Positions 2,402-60,586 of a stretch of DNA of 64,000 nucleotides are shown here, one piece after another. This DNA comes from Stappia sp. (GTDB taxonomy: Bacteria > Pseudomonadota > Alphaproteobacteria > Rhizobiales > Stappiaceae), in assembly GCF_965228715.1 (NCBI RefSeq), contig NZ_OZ245833.1, one strand, 5' to 3'. The position numbers and the translations under genes were made by a program. Positions within the stretch are counted from its first letter, which is position 1; each line of letters opens with the position of its first letter. The notes under the pieces are model-generated. The model saw only the letters and a list, made by a program, of their open reading frames with translations, ran no database searches and was not told the DNA's origin.

Positions 2402-2605
2402 ATGAGCAAGCTGCTCCGACGCCCCGGCAAAGGGGAAGTCGTTACCTATTCGCTTCGGCCGCACAAAAAGGGTCAGGCCCCCTTTTCCGACATCAAGCTC
2501 GCTGACGGTACGATCATCCGACGCGTGGACGAGTCCGTTCATCGCCGGGCCCTGGAGAAAGTCAATTCCGCGTTCCGCAAGCAGAAGCTCAAGGAACCGG
2601 CCTGA
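2402..2605 (+). CDS. Small basic hypothetical protein (67 aa)
   Basis: ATG at 2402 preceded by GGGAGAA; MSKLLRRPGKGEVV...KQKLKEPA; stop overlaps next start (TGATG). Confidence 0.65.
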   Translation: MSKLLRRPGKGEVVTYSLRPHKKGQAPFSDIKLADGTIIRRVDESVHRRALEKVNSAFRKQKLKEPA

Positions 2606-3186
2606 TGGACGAGGGAGCGGAAACTGCCAAACCGGCTGCGGCATTTTCTGGAACACCCTCACATTACAACAGAATCTTCGAGTTCTATGCAGAGAGCAAC
2701 GGCGACGATCTGGATCTCGTCGGGCTTGTTGCCTACGCGCTCTACAAGCGGCAAAAACGCGACTGGATCCTGAGGCATCAGAACGAGACCGGCGCTCGTC
2801 CGACAGACAGTGAGATGGCTGCAGTCATTGGCAACTATCTTACGGAAGACATGCGCACCACGCTGCGCGAGCGGGCGCAGGACTTTCTGTCGGAATATGG
2901 CGAAGCCTTTGCGGAAGCGGCAGAGCCCGAGATCGTCGAAGAGGCTCTCAACAGTGAGATGGTCCGCAAGGCGGAAGCATGCCAGAGAAGCGCAGAGGAA
3001 ACTCACGCCAGAATTCTGTCTGAAGTATCGCGCAATGGCGGATGGTGGCGGCAAATCTGGGCGAGTCTTGTCTCGGCTTTTGTGTGGACGTTCATCCTGA
3101 TCGTGATACTGGTCGGCGCAAAGCTGTTTGGGATCGACCCACTCGACGGTTGGTTCGCTCTAAACGGCCAGACAGAGCAACACTGA
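2605..3186 (+). CDS. Hypothetical protein, helical soluble N-terminus plus one C-terminal transmembrane helix
   Basis: 193 aa ORF coupled to upstream ORF; hydrophobic [30 protein letters not shown]; lower GC than flanking his genes. Confidence 0.75.
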
Positions 3187-3202
3187 CCTTCGGATTTCTC
3201 CC

Positions 3203-3931
3203 TTGCCCCATCTCTACCCCGCCATCGACCTCAAGGCCGGACAGTGCGTGCGCCTGAAGCTCGGCGACATGGAACAGGCCACCGTCTTCAGCGACGATCC
3301 GGGCGCGCAGGCGCGCGCCTTCCAGGACCAGGGCTTCAAGCGGCTGCACGTGGTCGACCTCGACGGCGCCTTCGCCGGCGAAAGCCGCAACGGCGACGCG
3401 GTGGACGCCATCCTCAAGGCGACCAAGAACCCGGTGCAGCTTGGCGGGGGCATCCGCACCCTCGACCATGTGGAGGCCTGGCTCGCCAAGGGCATCTCCC
3501 GCGTCATCCTGGGCACCGTCGCGGTGCGCGATCCGGGGCTGGTGCGCGAGGCCTGCCGCCTGTTTCCCGGCCATGTGGCCGTGGGCATCGACGCGCGCGG
3601 CGGCCGGGTCGCGGTGGAAGGCTGGGCGGAAACCTCGGAGCTTTCGGCGATCGAGCTTGCCGGACGGTTCGAGGACGCGGGCGTTTCCGCGATCATCTAC
3701 ACCGACATCGACCGCGACGGGGTCCTAGCCGGCATCAACTGGGACTCCACGCTGGACCTCGCCGCCGCCACTTCCATTCCCGTCATCGCCTCGGGTGGCC
3801 TTGCCTCCATCGAGGACGTGAAGCGCCTCGCCTCGCCGGAGGCCGCCCGGCTGGATGGCGCCATTTCTGGTCGCGCGCTTTATGACGGACGCCTCGATCC
3901 GGCCGAGGCACTTAAGGTCCTCGGCGCCTGA
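3203..3931 (+). CDS. hisA: ProFAR isomerase
   Basis: [37 protein letters not shown]; TTG start. Confidence 0.97.
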
Positions 3932-5398: not shown

Positions 5399-6364
5399 AT
5401 GGAACAGACCGTCAGCAGATACCGGGACGACGACCTGTCGCCCTACCGGGTCTTCTCCGAGGACCAGTGGGCCCGGCTGCGCGCCGACACGCCCATGACC
5501 CTGACGGCCTCGGAAGTCGCGCGCCTGCAAAGCCTCAACGATCCGGTCTCCATCGCCCAGGTGGAATCGATCCTGCTGCCGCTCTCCAGGCTCCTGGCCT
5601 ACTACGTGGAAGCGACCCAGCAGCTTCACCGGGCGACGAACCGCTTCCTGGGCTCCAACGAGGTGAAGAACCCCTTCGTCATCGGCCTTGCCGGATCCGT
5701 CGCGGTGGGCAAATCCACCACCGCACGCCTGCTTCAGGCGCTTCTGGCGCGCTGGCCGGCTAGCCCCAAGGTCGATCTCGTCACCACCGACGGCTTCCTG
5801 CACCCCAACGCGGTGCTGGAGCGGGAAGGCCTGATGCGGCGCAAGGGGTTCCCCGAAAGCTACGACCGCACGACGCTGCTCACCTTCCTCTCCGACCTCA
5901 AGGCCGGGCGGAGGCACGTGCGCGCGCCGGTCTACTCCCACTTCTACTACGACGTGATGCCGGACCAGTATGTCACCGTCGACCGGCCGGACATCCTCAT
6001 CCTCGAGGGGCTGAACGTTCTGCAGACCTCCAACCTGCCGCGAGACGGCAAGGAGGTGCCCTTCGTCTCCGACTTCTTCGACTTCTCGATCTACATCGAT
6101 GCCGACGAGGACGTGCTGCACGAATGGTACGTGAAGCGCTTCATGCGCCTGCGCGAGACCGCGTTCCGCGACCCCGGTTCCTACTTCAACAAGTATTCGA
6201 TGGTGGGCGAGAACGAGGCGCTGGAGATCGCCGAGGACCTGTGGCGCGAGATCAACCTGGTCAACCTGCAGGAAAACATCCTGCCGACCCGCCCGCGCGC
6301 CGACCTGATCCTGCACAAGAACCGCGATCACGCCATCGACGAGGTCCGCCTGCGCAAGCTTTAA
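5399..6364 (+). CDS. coaA: Type I pantothenate kinase
   Basis: [13 protein letters not shown]-loop, [26 protein letters not shown]. Confidence 0.98.
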
Positions 6365-55074: not shown

Positions 55075-55107
55075 ACGCCCGCCCCTTTTCGAAGGGGCGG
55101 GCGTTTT
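55075..55107. terminator. Intrinsic terminator between convergent GH31 and pecM
   Basis: 13-bp stem ACGCCCGCCCCTT/AAGGGGCGGGCGT, TTCG loop, then TTT. Confidence 0.8.
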
Positions 55108-55122
55108 CGTGTCAAACGCGCC

Positions 55123-56040
55123 TCATCCCGCGCGAACGGTCGCAGACGCGGAAGAGGGCACGGACGAGGGCGCGGCGACGGGAACACCCGCGCGACGAGC
55201 CTGCGCGCGCTGCCCGGCAATGATGCTCGCGAAGATCACCGCGATACCTGCCACCTGCAGGCCCGTCAGGGTCTCGCCCGCCAGCAGCATCCCGAGCGCG
55301 ACCGCCGTCACGGGGCTGAGAAAGCCGAGCGGCGAAACGATGGCCGGTTCAAGCCGGGCGAGGCCGCGAAACCACACCAGATAGGTGAAGGCCGCCCCGA
55401 TGAGTCCGAGATAGGCAAGACCCGCAAGGTTCGCGGCGGTCACAGTCTCGGGAAGCGGGGCGAACGCCAACGCGGCGGGCAGAAGCAGCACGCCACCGGC
55501 AACAAGCTGCCAGGCGGTGAAGGTCAGCGGCCCCGCCGGCGGCTGCCAGCGGCGCGAAAGCACGGTGCCCAGCGCCATGGAGGCCGCACCGCCAAGACCC
55601 GCGGCAAGGCCGAGCGGGTCGAGCGACGCGCCGGGCGTCAGGATGAGCATCGCGACGCCGCCAATGCCCGCAAGGGCGGCCAGGAAGGCGAGCGGCGCGA
55701 CGCGCGTGCCCAGAAGAGGCCGCGAGAGCATCAGCACGAGAAGCGGCTGAATGGCACCGACCGTTGCCGCCACGCCGCCGGGCAACCGGTAGGCGGCGAC
55801 GAACAGAAACGCCCAGAAGACCGAGAAGTTGAGCGCGCCCAGCAGGAACACCCTGGACCACCAGATCCCCCGAGGCATCTGGCGAACGAGAAGCAGCAGC
55901 AGCAGGCCTGCGGGCAGCGCGCGCAGGAAGGCGACGAGCAACGGGTGCCAGCCCGGCAGGAAGGTCGTCGCCACATAGTAGGAACTGCCCCAGATCGCCG
56001 GCGCGAGCGCCGTCAGGGCAATGTCTTTGGTCCGGTTCAT
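55123..56040 (-). CDS. pecM: PecM-like DMT/EamA exporter
   Basis: LTALAPAIWGS, RALPAGLLL, YRLPGGVAATVGAIQPL, TFTAWQL. Confidence 0.8.
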   Translation of the reverse strand: MNRTKDIALTALAPAIWGSSYYVATTFLPGWHPLLVAFLRALPAGLLLLLLVRQMPRGIWWSRVFLLGALNFSVFWAFLFVAAYRLPGGVAATVGAIQPLLVLMLSRPLLGTRVAPLAFLAALAGIGGVAMLILTPGASLDPLGLAAGLGGAASMALGTVLSRRWQPPAGPLTFTAWQLVAGGVLLLPAALAFAPLPETVTAANLAGLAYLGLIGAAFTYLVWFRGLARLEPAIVSPLGFLSPVTAVALGMLLAGETLTGLQVAGIAVIFASIIAGQRAQARRAGVPVAAPSSVPSSASATVRAG

Positions 56041-56087
56041 CGGTACGTCTCCACTGGCGCGGCGCCCCGAGGAGAGGCTCGCGCATT

Positions 56088-56107
56088 TTATCTTGATCTC
56101 AAGATAA
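56088..56107. promoter_or_regulatory. PecS-type operator palindrome 1
   Basis: TTATCTTGA-TC-TCAAGATAA, exact 9-bp arms. Confidence 0.8.
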
Positions 56108-56116
56108 TGAGATGAA

Positions 56117-56131
56117 TCTTGACGTCAAGAC
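56117..56131. repeat. Left copy of 15-bp direct repeat TCTTGACGTCAAGAC (operator palindrome 2)
   Basis: Identical to 59077-59091; 14-bp core is a perfect palindrome carrying TTGACG on both strands. Confidence 0.92.
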
Positions 56132-56183
56132 ATATGGACTTCGCTCGCCGGCGCCATTGTCCCAATCGGCTCTTGCGCCACCG

Positions 56184-56211
56184 CTATATATCCAATATTC
56201 TCGATATATAG
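56184..56211. promoter_or_regulatory. AT-rich inverted repeat, putative ArsR operator overlapping the ars promoter
   Basis: CTATATATC-N10-GATATATAG; TTGCGC-N17-TATTCT at 56173-56201. Confidence 0.6.
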
Positions 56212-56260
56212 ATTAAATGGAGCGCCACCGGCGATCCGCCCGCCGCGATCGGAGGCCGAA

Positions 56261-56752
56261 ATGTCCCAGGTCCACAACGTTCTCTTCCTGTGCACGGGCA
56301 ACTCCGCCCGCTCGATCATGGCCGAGGCCATCCTGACGCGGGAGGGAGGAGGACGGTTCCGCGCGTTTTCCGCCGGCTCGCAGCCGAAGGGCGAGGTGCA
56401 CCCCTTCGCCATCGACCTCCTTGCCCGGGAGGGACATGACACGGCCTTTGCCCGGTCCAAGAGCTGGGAGGAATTCGCGACAGCCGACGCCCCCCGGATG
56501 GATTTCGTCTTCACGGTCTGCGACCAGGCGGCCTCGGGATCGTGCCCCGTGTGGCCCGGCCAGCCCATGACCGCCCACTGGGGCGTTCCGGATCCGGCCG
56601 CCGCCACCGGCAATGACGCCGAGCGCCGTTTCGCCTTCGCCGACGCCTACCGGATGCTGTCCACCCGCATTTCCATCTTCGTGAACCTGCCCATCGCCTC
56701 CCTCGACAGCCTGTCGCTTTCGCGCCGGCTCGACGAGATCGGCAAGGCGTAA
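56261..56752 (+). CDS. arsC: Arsenate reductase, LMW-PTPase (thioredoxin-type) fold
   Basis: LFLCTGNSARS CX5R loop, TVCD, CPVWPG, AHWGVPDP. Confidence 0.9.
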   Translation: MSQVHNVLFLCTGNSARSIMAEAILTREGGGRFRAFSAGSQPKGEVHPFAIDLLAREGHDTAFARSKSWEEFATADAPRMDFVFTVCDQAASGSCPVWPGQPMTAHWGVPDPAAATGNDAERRFAFADAYRMLSTRISIFVNLPIASLDSLSLSRRLDEIGKA

Positions 56753-56796
56753 GGCCGTCCTCCCCGTCTCCTCCCGAACAAGAGCCCGCGACAGTC

Positions 56797-57876
56797 ATGA
56801 GCGACACGACCCAATCCCCCGCGCCCGGAATAAGCTTCTTCGAGAAGTGGCTGACCGCCTGGGTCACCGGCTGCATCATCGTCGGCATCCTGCTCGGCAA
56901 GGCCTTTCCCGGTGCCTTCGCCGCGCTCTCCGGCATGGAGGTCGCCAGCGTCAACATCCCCGTGGCCGTCCTGATCTGGCTCATGATCGTTCCCATGCTC
57001 ATGAAGATCGATTTCGCCGCGATGCTCCAGGTGGGCCGTCACTGGCGCGGCATCGGTGTCACCCTGCTCGCCAACTGGGCGATCAAGCCGTTCTCCATGG
57101 TCATCTTCGGCTGGCTGACGCTCGGCTGGCTGTTTCGCCCGCTGCTGCCCGAGGCCCAGATCGAGAGCTACATCGCCGGCCTGATCCTGCTCGGCGCCGC
57201 GCCCTGCACGGCCATGGTCTTCGTCTGGAGCAACCTGACGCGCGGCGACCCCGCCTTCACGCTCAGCCAGGTGGCCCTCAACGACGCGATCATGGTCATC
57301 GCCTTCGCGCCCATCGTGGCGCTGCTTCTCGGCGTTTCCTCCATCGTCGTGCCCTGGGAAACGCTGCTGATCTCCGTGGCGCTGTTCATCGTCGTTCCGG
57401 TGATCGTGGCGCAGGTGCTGCGCTCGGCGCTGGGCGGTGGCGACGGGTCGCGCCTTGCCGATTTCACCCATGCGGTGCAACCGTTCTCCATCACCGCCCT
57501 GCTGCTCACCGTCGTGCTGCTCTTCGCCTTCCAGGGCGGACAGATCCTCGCGCAGCCCTCGGTGATCGGCCTGATCGCGGTGCCGATCTTCCTGCAGACG
57601 GTCTTCATCTTCGCCTTCGCCTATGTCCTCAACCGGACGATCGGCGAGGAGCACTGCATCGCGGGTCCCTCCGCCCTTATCGGCGCCAGCAACTTCTTCG
57701 AACTCGCCGTGGCGACCGCCATCAGCCTGTTCGGCATCAACTCGGGCGCGGCGCTCGCCACCGTCGTCGGCGTGCTCATCGAGGTTCCGGTGATGCTCGC
57801 CCTCGTCGCCGTGGTGAACCGCTCGCGCGGCTGGTACGAGCGCAATCCCGCCGTTTCCGCCCGCAACGCCGGCTGA
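56797..57876 (+). CDS. acr3: Acr3 arsenite efflux transporter
   Basis: FFEKWLT, LIWLMIVPM, APCTAMVFVW, GASNFFELA, VGVLIEVPVM. Confidence 0.95.
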   Translation: MSDTTQSPAPGISFFEKWLTAWVTGCIIVGILLGKAFPGAFAALSGMEVASVNIPVAVLIWLMIVPMLMKIDFAAMLQVGRHWRGIGVTLLANWAIKPFSMVIFGWLTLGWLFRPLLPEAQIESYIAGLILLGAAPCTAMVFVWSNLTRGDPAFTLSQVALNDAIMVIAFAPIVALLLGVSSIVVPWETLLISVALFIVVPVIVAQVLRSALGGGDGSRLADFTHAVQPFSITALLLTVVLLFAFQGGQILAQPSVIGLIAVPIFLQTVFIFAFAYVLNRTIGEEHCIAGPSALIGASNFFELAVATAISLFGINSGAALATVVGVLIEVPVMLALVAVVNRSRGWYERNPAVSARNAG

Positions 57877-57904
57877 GCCCGGCCGGTTTTCCATCGAGGC
57901 CCCC

Positions 57905-58327
57905 ATGACCATCGTGATCCACCACAATCCCGACTGCGGCACCTCGCGCAACGTGCTGGAGATCATCCGCGCGGCCGGCGAGGAGCCCGTCGTCATTCCC
58001 TATCTGGACACCGGCTGGACGCGCCCCCAGCTTCAGGCGCTCTTCGCCGCGGCCGGCCTGACGCCGCGCACCGCGCTGCGCGAGACCAAGTCGCCGGCCG
58101 CGGATCTCGGCCTGCTCGGGGAGGGGGTGGCGGAGGACACAATCCTCGACGCCATGCTGGCGCATCCGGTTCTCGTCAACCGGCCCATCGTGTGCAGCCC
58201 GCGCGGCGTGCGCCTGTGCCGCCCCTCGGAAACCGTGCTCGACCTGCTCGACAGGATGCCCCCCGGTCCGCTTTCCAAGGAGGACGGAACGCTGGTCCTG
58301 GACGCGGAGGGCAACCGTGTCGGATGA
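57905..58327 (+). CDS. arsC: Arsenate reductase, glutaredoxin type
   Basis: [24 protein letters not shown]. Confidence 0.93.
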
Positions 58328-59030
58328 CCTGCCCCAGCTCGACGAGACGGCCTTCGCGCCCCTCGACGCGACGCGCCTGTTTCCCGCCAGCCGAAGCACC
58401 CATCCCCCGCGCCTGCTGCTCCTGACCGGATCGCTGCGCGAACGCAGCTACTCACGTCTTCTGGCACAGGAGGCGGCACGCGTGCTCGCCCGTTTCGGCG
58501 CCGAGACGCGGTTCTTCGATCCGGCCGGCCTGCCGCTTCCCGACGGCGACGACGCCTCCCACCCGAAGGTGGCGGAACTGCGCGACCTCGTCACCTGGTG
58601 CGAGGGCATGGTCTGGTGCTCGCCGGAGCGCCACGGCGCCATGTCGGCGGTGATGAAGGCCCAGATCGACTGGATTCCCCTGTCGCTTGGCGGCGTGCGC
58701 CCGACCCAGGGCAAGACACTCGCGGTGATGCAGGTCTGTGGCGGCAGCCAGAGTTTCAACACCGTCAACCAGTTGCGCATCCTGGGGCGCTGGATGCGCC
58801 TGCTCACCATCCCCAACCAGTCGTCCGTGCCCAAGGCGTTCAACGAGTTCGACGAGGCGGGCCGCATGATCGCCTCGCCCTTCTTCGACCGCATGGTCGA
58901 CGTGATGGAGGAACTCGTCCGCTTCACATGGCTGACCCGCGACATCCGCGAAGCGCTCGTGGACCGTTATTCGGAACGCAAGGAAAGCCACGCGGAGCTG
59001 TCGGCACGCGTCAACCAGCGCCGGATCTGA
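58317..59030 (+). CDS. arsH: NADPH-dependent FMN reductase ArsH
   Basis: [34 protein letters not shown]; GTG start overlapping arsC. Confidence 0.95.
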
Positions 59031-59076
59031 CCGCTCGCTGACACGTCCCGGGCGGGCGGGCGGCGCCGGCATTGTG

Positions 59077-59091
59077 TCTTGACGTCAAGAC
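59077..59091. repeat. Right copy of 15-bp direct repeat TCTTGACGTCAAGAC
   Basis: Identical to 56117-56131; its TTGACG (59079-59084) lies 17 nt before CGATAT (59102-59107). Confidence 0.92.
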
Positions 59092-59113
59092 GCAGCGGCG
59101 GCGATATGGGGGC

Positions 59114-59593
59114 ATGGATCATGTCGAGCGCATCGTCGAGCAGTGGAACCGGGAGCGCCCCGACCTGGATGTGGCGCCCATGGCGCTCATCGGCCGTCTC
59201 GGTCGCCTTGCGCGCGCCTGGAGCCGGGAGATGGAGGCGACCTTCGCCCGTCACGGCCTCAATGCCGCAAGCTTCGACCTTCTGGCCACGCTGCGGCGGG
59301 CCGGACCTCCGTACGCACTGTCCCCCGGCGCGCTGATCGAGGCGACGATGGTCACCTCGGGCACGATCACCAACCGCATCGACCGCCTCGTGGCGGCGGG
59401 CCTCGTCGAGCGCAGGCCCAACCCTCAGGACGGACGGGGTTTTCTCGTGTCGCTGACGCCCGAAGGGTTCTCGCGCATCGACGCCTGCGTCACGGACCAC
59501 GTGGCGACACAGGCGCGCCTCGTCGCCCCGCTCGACGCCGCCGACCGCGCGGCTCTCGAGGCCCTGCTGAGAAAGGCCGCCGGGACGACGTGA
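59114..59593 (+). CDS. pecS: PecS/UrtR-type MarR regulator
   Basis: MDHVERIVEQWNRERPDLD..PM extra N-terminal helix with conserved Trp, FDLLATLRRAG, TNRIDRL, DGRG. Confidence 0.82.
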   Translation: MDHVERIVEQWNRERPDLDVAPMALIGRLGRLARAWSREMEATFARHGLNAASFDLLATLRRAGPPYALSPGALIEATMVTSGTITNRIDRLVAAGLVERRPNPQDGRGFLVSLTPEGFSRIDACVTDHVATQARLVAPLDAADRAALEALLRKAAGTT

Positions 59594-59707: not shown

Positions 59708-60586
59708 ATGAGCAACGACAATACCTATGTCCCGCCCCGCATCTGGACGTGGGAAGCACCGAGCGGCGGCGCCTTCGCCAGCATCAACCGTCCGGTGTCC
59801 GGCGCGACCCACGACAAGGAGCTGCCCGTCGGCAAGCACCCCATGCAGCTGTATTCGCTGGGGACGCCGAACGGCCAGAAGGTGACCATCCTTCTCGAGG
59901 AGCTCCTGGCGGCCGGTCACACGGGCGCCGAATATGACGCCTGGCTGATCCGCATCGGCGACGGCGACCAGTTCGGCTCCGGCTTCGTGGAGGCCAATCC
60001 CAACTCCAAGATCCCGGCGCTCGTCGACCGCAGCGGCGCGGAGCCGGTGCGCGTGTTCGAATCCGGCGCGATCCTCATGCACCTGGCGGAAAAGTTCGGC
60101 GCCTTCATTCCCCAGGACCCGGCGAAGCGGGCGGAAATGCTGTCCTGGCTGTTCTGGCAGATGGGCTCGGCCCCCTTCGTGGGCGGTGGCTTCGGCCATT
60201 TCTACGCCTATGCGCCGGTGAAGCTCGAATATCCCATCAACCGCTACGCCATGGAGACCAAGCGCCAGCTCGACGTGCTCGACAAGCGGCTGGCCGAGAC
60301 GCGCTTTGTCGCCGGCGACGACTACACCATCGCCGACATGGCGATCTGGCCGTGGTACGGCGGCCTCGTGAAGGGCTGGCTCTACGAAGCGGCGGAGTTC
60401 CTGCAGGTGTCGGACTACACCAACGTGCTGCGCTGGGCCGACGAGATCCTGGCCCGTCCGGCGGTGCAGCGCGGTCGCATGGTGAACCGCACGAGCGGCG
60501 ATCCCGCGACGCAGCTTCACGAGCGCCACGACGCCTCGGACTTCGACACGAAGACACAGGACAAGATCGAGGCGGCAAAGGCCTGA
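59708..60586 (+). CDS. yghU: Glutathione-dependent disulfide oxidoreductase, YghU-like GST
   Basis: YVPPRIWTW, NRPVSG, YSLGTPNGQK, NPNSKIP, FESGAIL. Confidence 0.88.
   Translation: MSNDNTYVPPRIWTWEAPSGGAFASINRPVSGATHDKELPVGKHPMQLYSLGTPNGQKVTILLEELLAAGHTGAEYDAWLIRIGDGDQFGSGFVEANPNSKIPALVDRSGAEPVRVFESGAILMHLAEKFGAFIPQDPAKRAEMLSWLFWQMGSAPFVGGGFGHFYAYAPVKLEYPINRYAMETKRQLDVLDKRLAETRFVAGDDYTIADMAIWPWYGGLVKGWLYEAAEFLQVSDYTNVLRWADEILARPAVQRGRMVNRTSGDPATQLHERHDASDFDTKTQDKIEAAKA

Follow-up and report, generated by a model that had tools for sequence, protein, structure and literature searches.

In this work, we examined positions 55,123 to 59,593 of a 64,000-nucleotide stretch of DNA from Stappia sp. 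(contig NZ_OZ245833.1; the whole stretch is called the window), in which a pecM-like efflux gene and a pecS-like regulator gene are separated by four arsenic resistance genes (arsC-acr3-arsC-arsH). The locus is an architectural variant of the known pecS-pecM locus, with an ars operon that has no arsR nested between duplicated operators. It is probable that this order is a fixed, vertically inherited local rearrangement of a neighbourhood made up of pecM, pecS, an arsR-led ars operon and a glutathione S-transferase (GST) gene, during which arsR was lost and the shared operator was duplicated, and that it is not mobile. The duplicated element is the 15-mer TCTTGACGTCAAGAC, which occurs at 56117-56131 and at 59077-59091, 2960 bp apart, and brackets the ars genes. 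A related palindrome, TCTTGATCTCAAGA, is located at 56091-56104, 26 bp before the left copy. The features of the locus are the following (positions in the window).

55075..55104, no strand assigned: GC-rich hairpin in the GH31/pecM intergenic region (convergent genes), a probable bidirectional terminator (inverted-repeat and terminator scans)
55123..56040, minus strand: pecM-like EamA/DMT efflux gene, 305 amino acids (Pfam EamA, 3.9e-35), divergent partner of the pecS-like gene in relatives
56089..56106, no strand assigned: operator site 1, TATCTTGATCTCAAGATA, which overlaps the pecM -10 box and fits the UrtR consensus (PMC11602129)
56115..56132, no strand assigned: left copy of operator site 2, AATCTTGACGTCAAGACA, whose bottom-strand TTGACG (56123-56128) is the pecM -35 box
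56173..56210, plus strand: ars promoter, TTGCGC (56173-56178), N17, TATTCT (56196-56201), overlapping an ArsR-type operator
56261..56752, plus strand: arsC of the low-molecular-weight phosphatase (LMWP) type (domain and profile matches)
56797..57876, plus strand: acr3 arsenite efflux transporter gene (TIGR00832, 365.6 bits, cutoff 282.8)
57905..58327, plus strand: arsC of the glutaredoxin (Grx) type (domain and profile matches)
58317..59030, plus strand: arsH (TIGR02690, 385 bits, cutoff 292.25)
59075..59092, no strand assigned: right copy of operator site 2 (site 2'), TGTCTTGACGTCAAGACG, whose top-strand TTGACG (59079-59084) is the pecS -35 box
59102..59107, plus strand: candidate pecS -10 box CGATAT, 6 nt before the ATG; GGCGA(T/A)ATG is kept in six aligned loci
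59114..59593, plus strand: pecS-like MarR repressor gene of the UrtR family, 159 amino acids (PDB matches to MftR, PecS and HucR; invariant W11, D55, R62 and H129)
59708..60586, plus strand: yghU-type glutathione-dependent oxidoreductase (GST) gene (NF008731, 533.9 bits)

Six genes were called in the interval (EamA, two ArsC, Acr3, ArsH and MarR), followed by the YghU-type GST, and both Acr3 and ArsH pass their equivalog cutoffs (TIGR00832 and TIGR02690). The MarR gene starts at the ATG at 59114, not at the TTG at 59072. A Pfam scan of the interval found no arsR, integrase or transposase encoded within it, and the repeat scan found no inverted repeat joining the two ends of the ars block. The first-pass annotation, made from the sequence alone, had likewise noted the lack of an integrase and a transposase, and the positions, spacing and bracketing that it gave for the 15-mer were also confirmed in the sequence.

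The window regulator contains a MarR domain (PF12802, 3.6e-15; PF01047, 4.4e-11). Its nearest solved structures are MftR (8YLF, 1.4e-42), PecS (8YLH, 2.1e-36) and HucR (2FBK, 4e-24), the identities of these PDB entries being taken from PMC11602129, and the classical MarR of E. coli matches it at only about 1e-10. Four residues, W24, D68, R75 and H142 in PecS numbering, were reported to be absolutely conserved in UrtR proteins (PMC11602129). Their window equivalents in the alignment to the PecS and MftR chains are W11, D55, R62 and H129, with a constant offset of 13, and none of the four varies among 23 homologues. On sequence evidence, the protein is a genuine UrtR/PecS-family regulator, and the EamA and MarR genes are a real pecS/pecM-type pair; the structure matches, the four residues and the adjacency of both genes in relatives support the earlier claim of such a pair.

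The operators of PecS-type regulators were described as 18-bp palindromes (TATCTT-N6-AAGATA) which overlap both promoters, two to three per locus (PMC6391409, PMC12288460, PMC11602129). The operator consensus of the UrtR family is TxxCTxxxxxxxxAGxxA (PMC11602129); site 1 fits it at 6/6 positions and each copy of site 2 at 5/6. The three window sites (TATCTTGATCTCAAGATA, AATCTTGACGTCAAGACA and TGTCTTGACGTCAAGACG) are close to the crystallised operators PecO1 TATCTTGACTTCAAGGTA and MftrO TGTCTCTACGTCAAGATA (PMC11602129), and the Vibrio PecS site TATCTTTATATTAAGATA has outer hexamers identical to theirs (PMC6391409). The palindrome core TCTTGANNTCAAGA occurs four times in the 4.51-Mb genome, against 0.04 occurrences expected from base composition, and three of the four are at this locus, so the clustering is far beyond chance. 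The fourth (G000:C1:1845245) was considered as an operator and dismissed as fortuitous, being inside a coding region. With up to one mismatch, 11 PecS palindromes were found in the genome against 1.8 expected, including G000:C1:3207651, 1766001 and 1260352, and those away from the locus are possible further members of a PecS regulon.

That the palindromes are PecS-type operators and double as both -35 boxes, as proposed in the first-pass annotation, is upheld by the consensus fit and by TTGACG on each strand. The pecM promoter TTGACG-N16-TATCTT (minus strand, 56128-56101) was recovered as claimed and is the sole sigma-70-like match of the promoter scan in 4.8 kb. On the pecS side, the proposed TTGACG-N17-CGATAT is present at 59079-59107, but its second hexamer fails the -10 rule of the same scan. 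Moreover, the pecS ATG follows the conserved -10-like box by 6-7 nt in the rearranged and canonical loci that were aligned (59102-59116). Because the candidate -10 box is only 6 nt before the ATG, the pecS mRNAs in the Stappia-like group are probably leaderless or near-leaderless, judging from a predicted transcription start. No -10 box follows the left copy in the rightward direction, so the ars genes would rely on a promoter of their own.

The arrangement in relatives was read base by base in 12 related loci and surveyed in a broader set of 80 pecS loci spanning many phyla. The pecM and pecS genes are adjacent in 12/12 of the related loci, and the spacers of the 10 closest contain two palindromes whose starts are exactly 26 bp apart; the norm given for these genes in the first-pass annotation, adjacent and divergent with two palindromes, therefore holds for them. 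Nine relatives from the Stappiaceae-like family to which the genome belongs (G007, G010, G015, G023, G099, G155, G087, G028 and G098; source names of hits include Roseibium litorale and Stappia taiwanensis) have divergent pecM and pecS 80-110 bp apart, and a further locus, L139, has the same two-site spacer of 26 bp. In the wider sample, a divergent pecM is found within 300 bp of pecS in 56 of the 80 loci. The pecS-proximal site is almost always TCTTGACGTCAAGA across the genera of that sample, and this palindrome supplies a TTGACG -35 box on each strand. G007 belongs to the same genus as the window, with about 79% DNA identity across GH31-pecM and pecS, and has the order GH31-pecM, site 1, site 2, pecS (pecM and pecS divergent) without ars genes; to the right of its pecS is an amidase gene and not GST. 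In the window, the start codons of pecM and pecS are 3073 bp apart, and the divergent pair with a short spacer is found instead in G007, L139 and other relatives.

By aligning the window with G007 and L139, the spacing between the right copy and the pecS ATG was found to be canonical, with GGCGA(T/A)ATG after the copy, and the left copy retains the canonical 26-bp pairing with site 1. The window is the canonical spacer with one extra copy of the pecS-proximal site 2, and the ars block lies between the copies. Deleting the ars block together with one repeat restores the site 1-site 2 spacer of G007 and other relatives, just as the first-pass annotation had stated. On the other hand, its predicted empty site, with a single 15-mer between pecM and pecS, was not found, since relatives carry two palindromes there. 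The same layout bears on the idea that nothing was duplicated at all and that the ars genes came to separate the pecM sites from the pecS site in an ancestor which already had three PecS sites, as in Agrobacterium. The loci of Rhizobium and Agrobacterium do have three sites. However, L139 and the nine family members, G007 among them, each have exactly two sites 26 bp apart, and the window keeps this 26-bp pair intact beside pecM with a third site added, so a three-site ancestor is scarcely credible.

The rearranged order, with all three sites, was also found in other assemblies (L138, L152-L155, L156 and L140/141), in which the proteins are 83-98% identical to those of the window (a difference of 2-17%). 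These loci form one clade in the pecM+pecS tree (support 99/98), and the order is inherited in at least four diverged lineages. From the tree and the protein distances, the rearrangement is best taken as a single old event, vertically inherited in one Stappia-like marine clade. The GST right flank is common to the window, L138, L152, L156 and L139. In the alignments, the left copy is invariant in three lineages with the rearranged order, and the core of the right copy is invariant in four rearranged and two canonical loci, at an equal distance from the pecS ATG. The boundaries of the duplication coincide with the palindrome edges in all lineages aligned. Selection is indicated by the conservation of the operators, ars promoter and ribosome-binding site next to spacers that have diverged beyond alignment. 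Directly after the left copy, CATATGGA (56131-56138) is also invariant in three diverged lineages, unlike the 40 bp that follow; it may be left over from the old pecS -10 or start region, or be an extended PecS contact.

The first-pass annotation had interpreted the locus as a mobile ars cassette without its own recombinase, which uses the PecS operator as an attachment site, duplicates it on entry and may excise by recombination between the copies. A perfect direct repeat of 15 bp exactly at both ends of the ars block, and the seemingly empty site of G007 (pecM, site 1, site 2, pecS), would fit such an element, and so would a second interrupted pair with two sites on one side and one on the other in Rugamonas, whose relatives are canonical. 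However, the ars block was found at one locus only. In a search of a 5.8-billion-protein collection, every ArsH match of at least 92% identity among the 120 best maps to the same pecM...pecS-GST locus, and the next match among them, at 86%, is L139; no Acr3 relative above 71% was found among one genome per species, and plasmids contained nothing like the block above about 70%. The rearranged order is monophyletic and old, and the ars operon of L139 adjoins the same genes. The interval scans detected neither terminal inverted repeats nor a recombinase, and no excised variant or precise empty site was seen among the contigs of the rearranged clade; G007 is not a simple excision product, because its right flank is the amidase gene and not GST. 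The repeat is merely a consensus operator, and in Rugamonas the cargo is lysR and the sites are not identical. The mobile cassette is thus very unlikely; one inherited event, the lack of any other context, the linkage of ars to the same locus in L139 and the lack of an excised form all speak against the proposal. In L156 (4203-8679), a tyrosine integrase gene (Arm-DNA-bind_3/Phage_integrase) and a reverse transcriptase gene were noticed 2-5 kb downstream of GST; this region is a lineage-specific island unrelated to the ars block.

L139, which comes from metagenome run ERR14788559 and is about as distant from the window as G007, has the order pecM, site 1, site 2, pecS, arsR, arsC, aqpS, arsC, arsH, GST, with pecM and pecS divergent. 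Its shared ars proteins are 81-88% identical to those of the window, and its PecM (82%), PecS (79%) and GST (88%) fall in a range like that of the ars proteins. The L139 ArsH is sister to the ArsH of the window clade (support 100/99, on a long stem). At 2549-3268, L139 contains an aquaglyceroporin gene (MIP, aqpS-like) in the place of the window acr3 (56797-57876). We consider that the rearrangement probably started from an L139-like ancestor, in which pecS and site 2 would have moved downstream of arsH and arsR would have been lost. Parsimony favours this order as ancestral because pecM-pecS adjacency and arsR-first operons rule elsewhere. The molecular route may have been a tandem duplication of the segment from site 2 and pecS to the ars genes, followed by deletions (at least three events), or one staggered break at the edges of the operator that was then filled in. 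Both the direction of change and the route are read from sequence comparison. The identity of the two repeat copies is uninformative on recency, since both are the consensus operator under selection and stay identical for that reason.

The loss of arsR was a derived change, judging from what it left behind. An ArsR-type operator, ATATATCCAATATTCTCGATATAT, is present at 56186-56209, and no arsR gene follows it; this operator and the ars promoter are fully conserved in the rearranged clade. In L139, L157 and many ars operons of Alphaproteobacteria, arsR is preceded by the same operator motif, and the loss is deduced because operator and promoter were retained here and precede arsR elsewhere. The window acr3 and arsH are the only copies in the genome. 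The closest ArsR homologue in the genome (G000:C1:3732775-3733143, 55% identical to the L139 ArsR) is encoded 1.7 Mb away. It lies behind a similar palindrome, ATGTATC-N10-GATACAT (G000:C1:3732753-3733143; L158 1479-1869), with no ars gene adjoining, and is a candidate trans regulator of the ars operon.

An alternative to the local rearrangement is a one-off, non-mobile capture, in which an ars fragment, acquired horizontally or derived from another part of the genome, entered a G007-like spacer at a staggered double-strand break. Nicks would have flanked the PecS-bound or distorted palindrome, fill-in would have duplicated exactly the 14-15 bp core, and the ars operon of L139 would be a separate acquisition or a later relocation. 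The coincidence of the duplication boundaries with the palindrome edges in all lineages is consistent with this, as are the acr3 gene of the window against aqpS in L139, an Acr3 without a close relative anywhere searched, and the independent two-plus-one outcome in Rugamonas. G007 is also as close to the window as L139 is, and the three-way branching was not settled by the tree. Against the capture, ArsH, ArsC and GST of L139 and of the window diverge in step and are mutual nearest relatives, and it would be a coincidence if near-identical donors had twice supplied ars genes to one three-gene neighbourhood. For breakage of the cruciform type, a palindrome of 14 bp is short, and the loss of arsR would still be a separate event, because the retained promoter and operator lie upstream of the expected arsR position. 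Overall, we regard this scenario as rather unlikely. Cruciform resolution at the palindrome would also give exactly such a duplication, but was rejected since arms of 7 bp are too short to make it likely.

The local rearrangement from an L139-like ancestor has its own weak points. The pecM+pecS tree did not settle how the rearranged clade, L139 and G007 branch from one another, and the L139 order is ancestral by parsimony only. When non-coding DNA of the window was compared with that of L139, significant alignment was limited to the operators and the ars promoter; the flanks are too diverged for junction homology (z 1-2), and the similarity of the window junction spacers to the pecS-arsR and arsH-GST spacers of L139 was not above that of shuffled controls (z 1.2-1.9). 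A search of L139 at up to two mismatches gave no third PecS site beyond arsH that might have served as a substrate for unequal crossing-over. The duplication-and-deletion route needs three or more events. Furthermore, a duplication that ends exactly at the palindrome edges resembles a target-site duplication, which random breakpoints do not predict.

The last point, as the sole such feature, keeps alive the idea of operator-directed insertion. In Rugamonas sp. CCM 8940 (L241 5763-6980), the pecM-pecS pair is interrupted by the gene of a LysR-type regulator; of the three PecS-type sites there, two adjoin pecM and one precedes pecS. In the relatives G212 and G217, the two genes are adjacent in the canonical way, with a two-site spacer. 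The three Rugamonas sites share consensus positions only. Operator-directed insertion would mean that PecS/UrtR palindromes are preferred insertion points, through paired nicks at the edges of the distorted or repressor-bound palindrome or through a recombinase acting in trans, and that the ars genes in Stappia and lysR in Rugamonas are independent products of the same process. If true, operator-directed insertion would capture foreign or relocated genes with an exact operator duplication, automatically preserving regulation on both sides. However, the recurrence of the two-plus-one outcome in Rugamonas is explained by selection as well as by a targeting mechanism, because both genes stay regulated only where an interruption leaves each of them an operator, and we give this hypothesis a slim chance. 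In Actinomadura mexicana (L237), one proximal pecS site was observed together with a pair of PecS-type sites about 950 bp upstream (about 6024-6060 and 6968).

Under the favoured local rearrangement, the regulatory consequences would be as follows. The left copy and site 1 cover the -35 and -10 boxes of pecM, so PecS bound at both would occlude the pecM promoter, and the right copy covers the -35 box of the probably leaderless pecS. PecS would still be able to repress both pecM and itself at a distance of 3 kb, because each promoter has an operator copy. The ars operon would use its own promoter and ArsR operator and would presumably be controlled in trans, e.g., by the ArsR homologue 1.7 Mb away. 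A terminator scan found no intrinsic terminator between arsH and pecS, and the spacer folds mainly through the palindrome itself (z -2.3). Arsenic-induced ars transcription may read through into pecS, which is probable because no terminator was detected before it. PecS binding, promoter use, read-through and ArsR control in trans are all predicted here from the positions of motifs and genes.

By comparison with the pecS-pecM loci of Dickeya, Agrobacterium fabrum, Vibrio vulnificus and Pectobacterium, and with MftR and HucR, the window regulator has the same UrtR N-terminal helix and W/D/R/H residues, and the locus has the same EamA-type PecM partner and 18-bp palindromic operators over both promoters. 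It differs in that a four-gene arsenic operon holds pecS and pecM 3 kb apart, each promoter has its own copy of the duplicated shared operator, and pecS is directly downstream of arsH with no terminator detected. It is thus a natural example of how the bidirectional promoter/operator of a repressor and its target can be separated while control of both is kept by a duplicated operator and -35 box. The ars genes follow the alphaproteobacterial type arsR-arsC-acr3-arsC-arsH (Rhizobium, Agrobacterium, Shinella, Martelella) in gene set and order after arsR, and in the AT-rich ArsR operator ATATATC-N10-GATATAT overlapping the promoter. Unlike in that type, arsR is missing while operator and promoter are kept, and the operon is nested in the locus of another regulator. 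The only arsenic operon of the genome, without its own repressor gene, is directly upstream of a urate and oxidative-stress regulator, and the predicted cross-talk is that arsenic induction raises PecS. As in transposon target-site duplications and attL/attR pairs, a short direct repeat flanks the block and is present once in the "empty" relatives. However, neither a transposase or integrase nor terminal inverted repeats are present in the interval, no further copy of the block and no other context were found, the repeat is a predicted transcription-factor operator conserved by selection, and the genes of the block are already neighbours of the site in the near relative L139; no new kind of mobile element is revealed. 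The closest parallel in architecture, pecM-lysR-pecS of Rugamonas, is alike in its interrupted pair and in the division of its sites, two on the pecM side and one on the pecS side, and differs in that the insert is a single LysR-type gene and its sites share consensus positions only.

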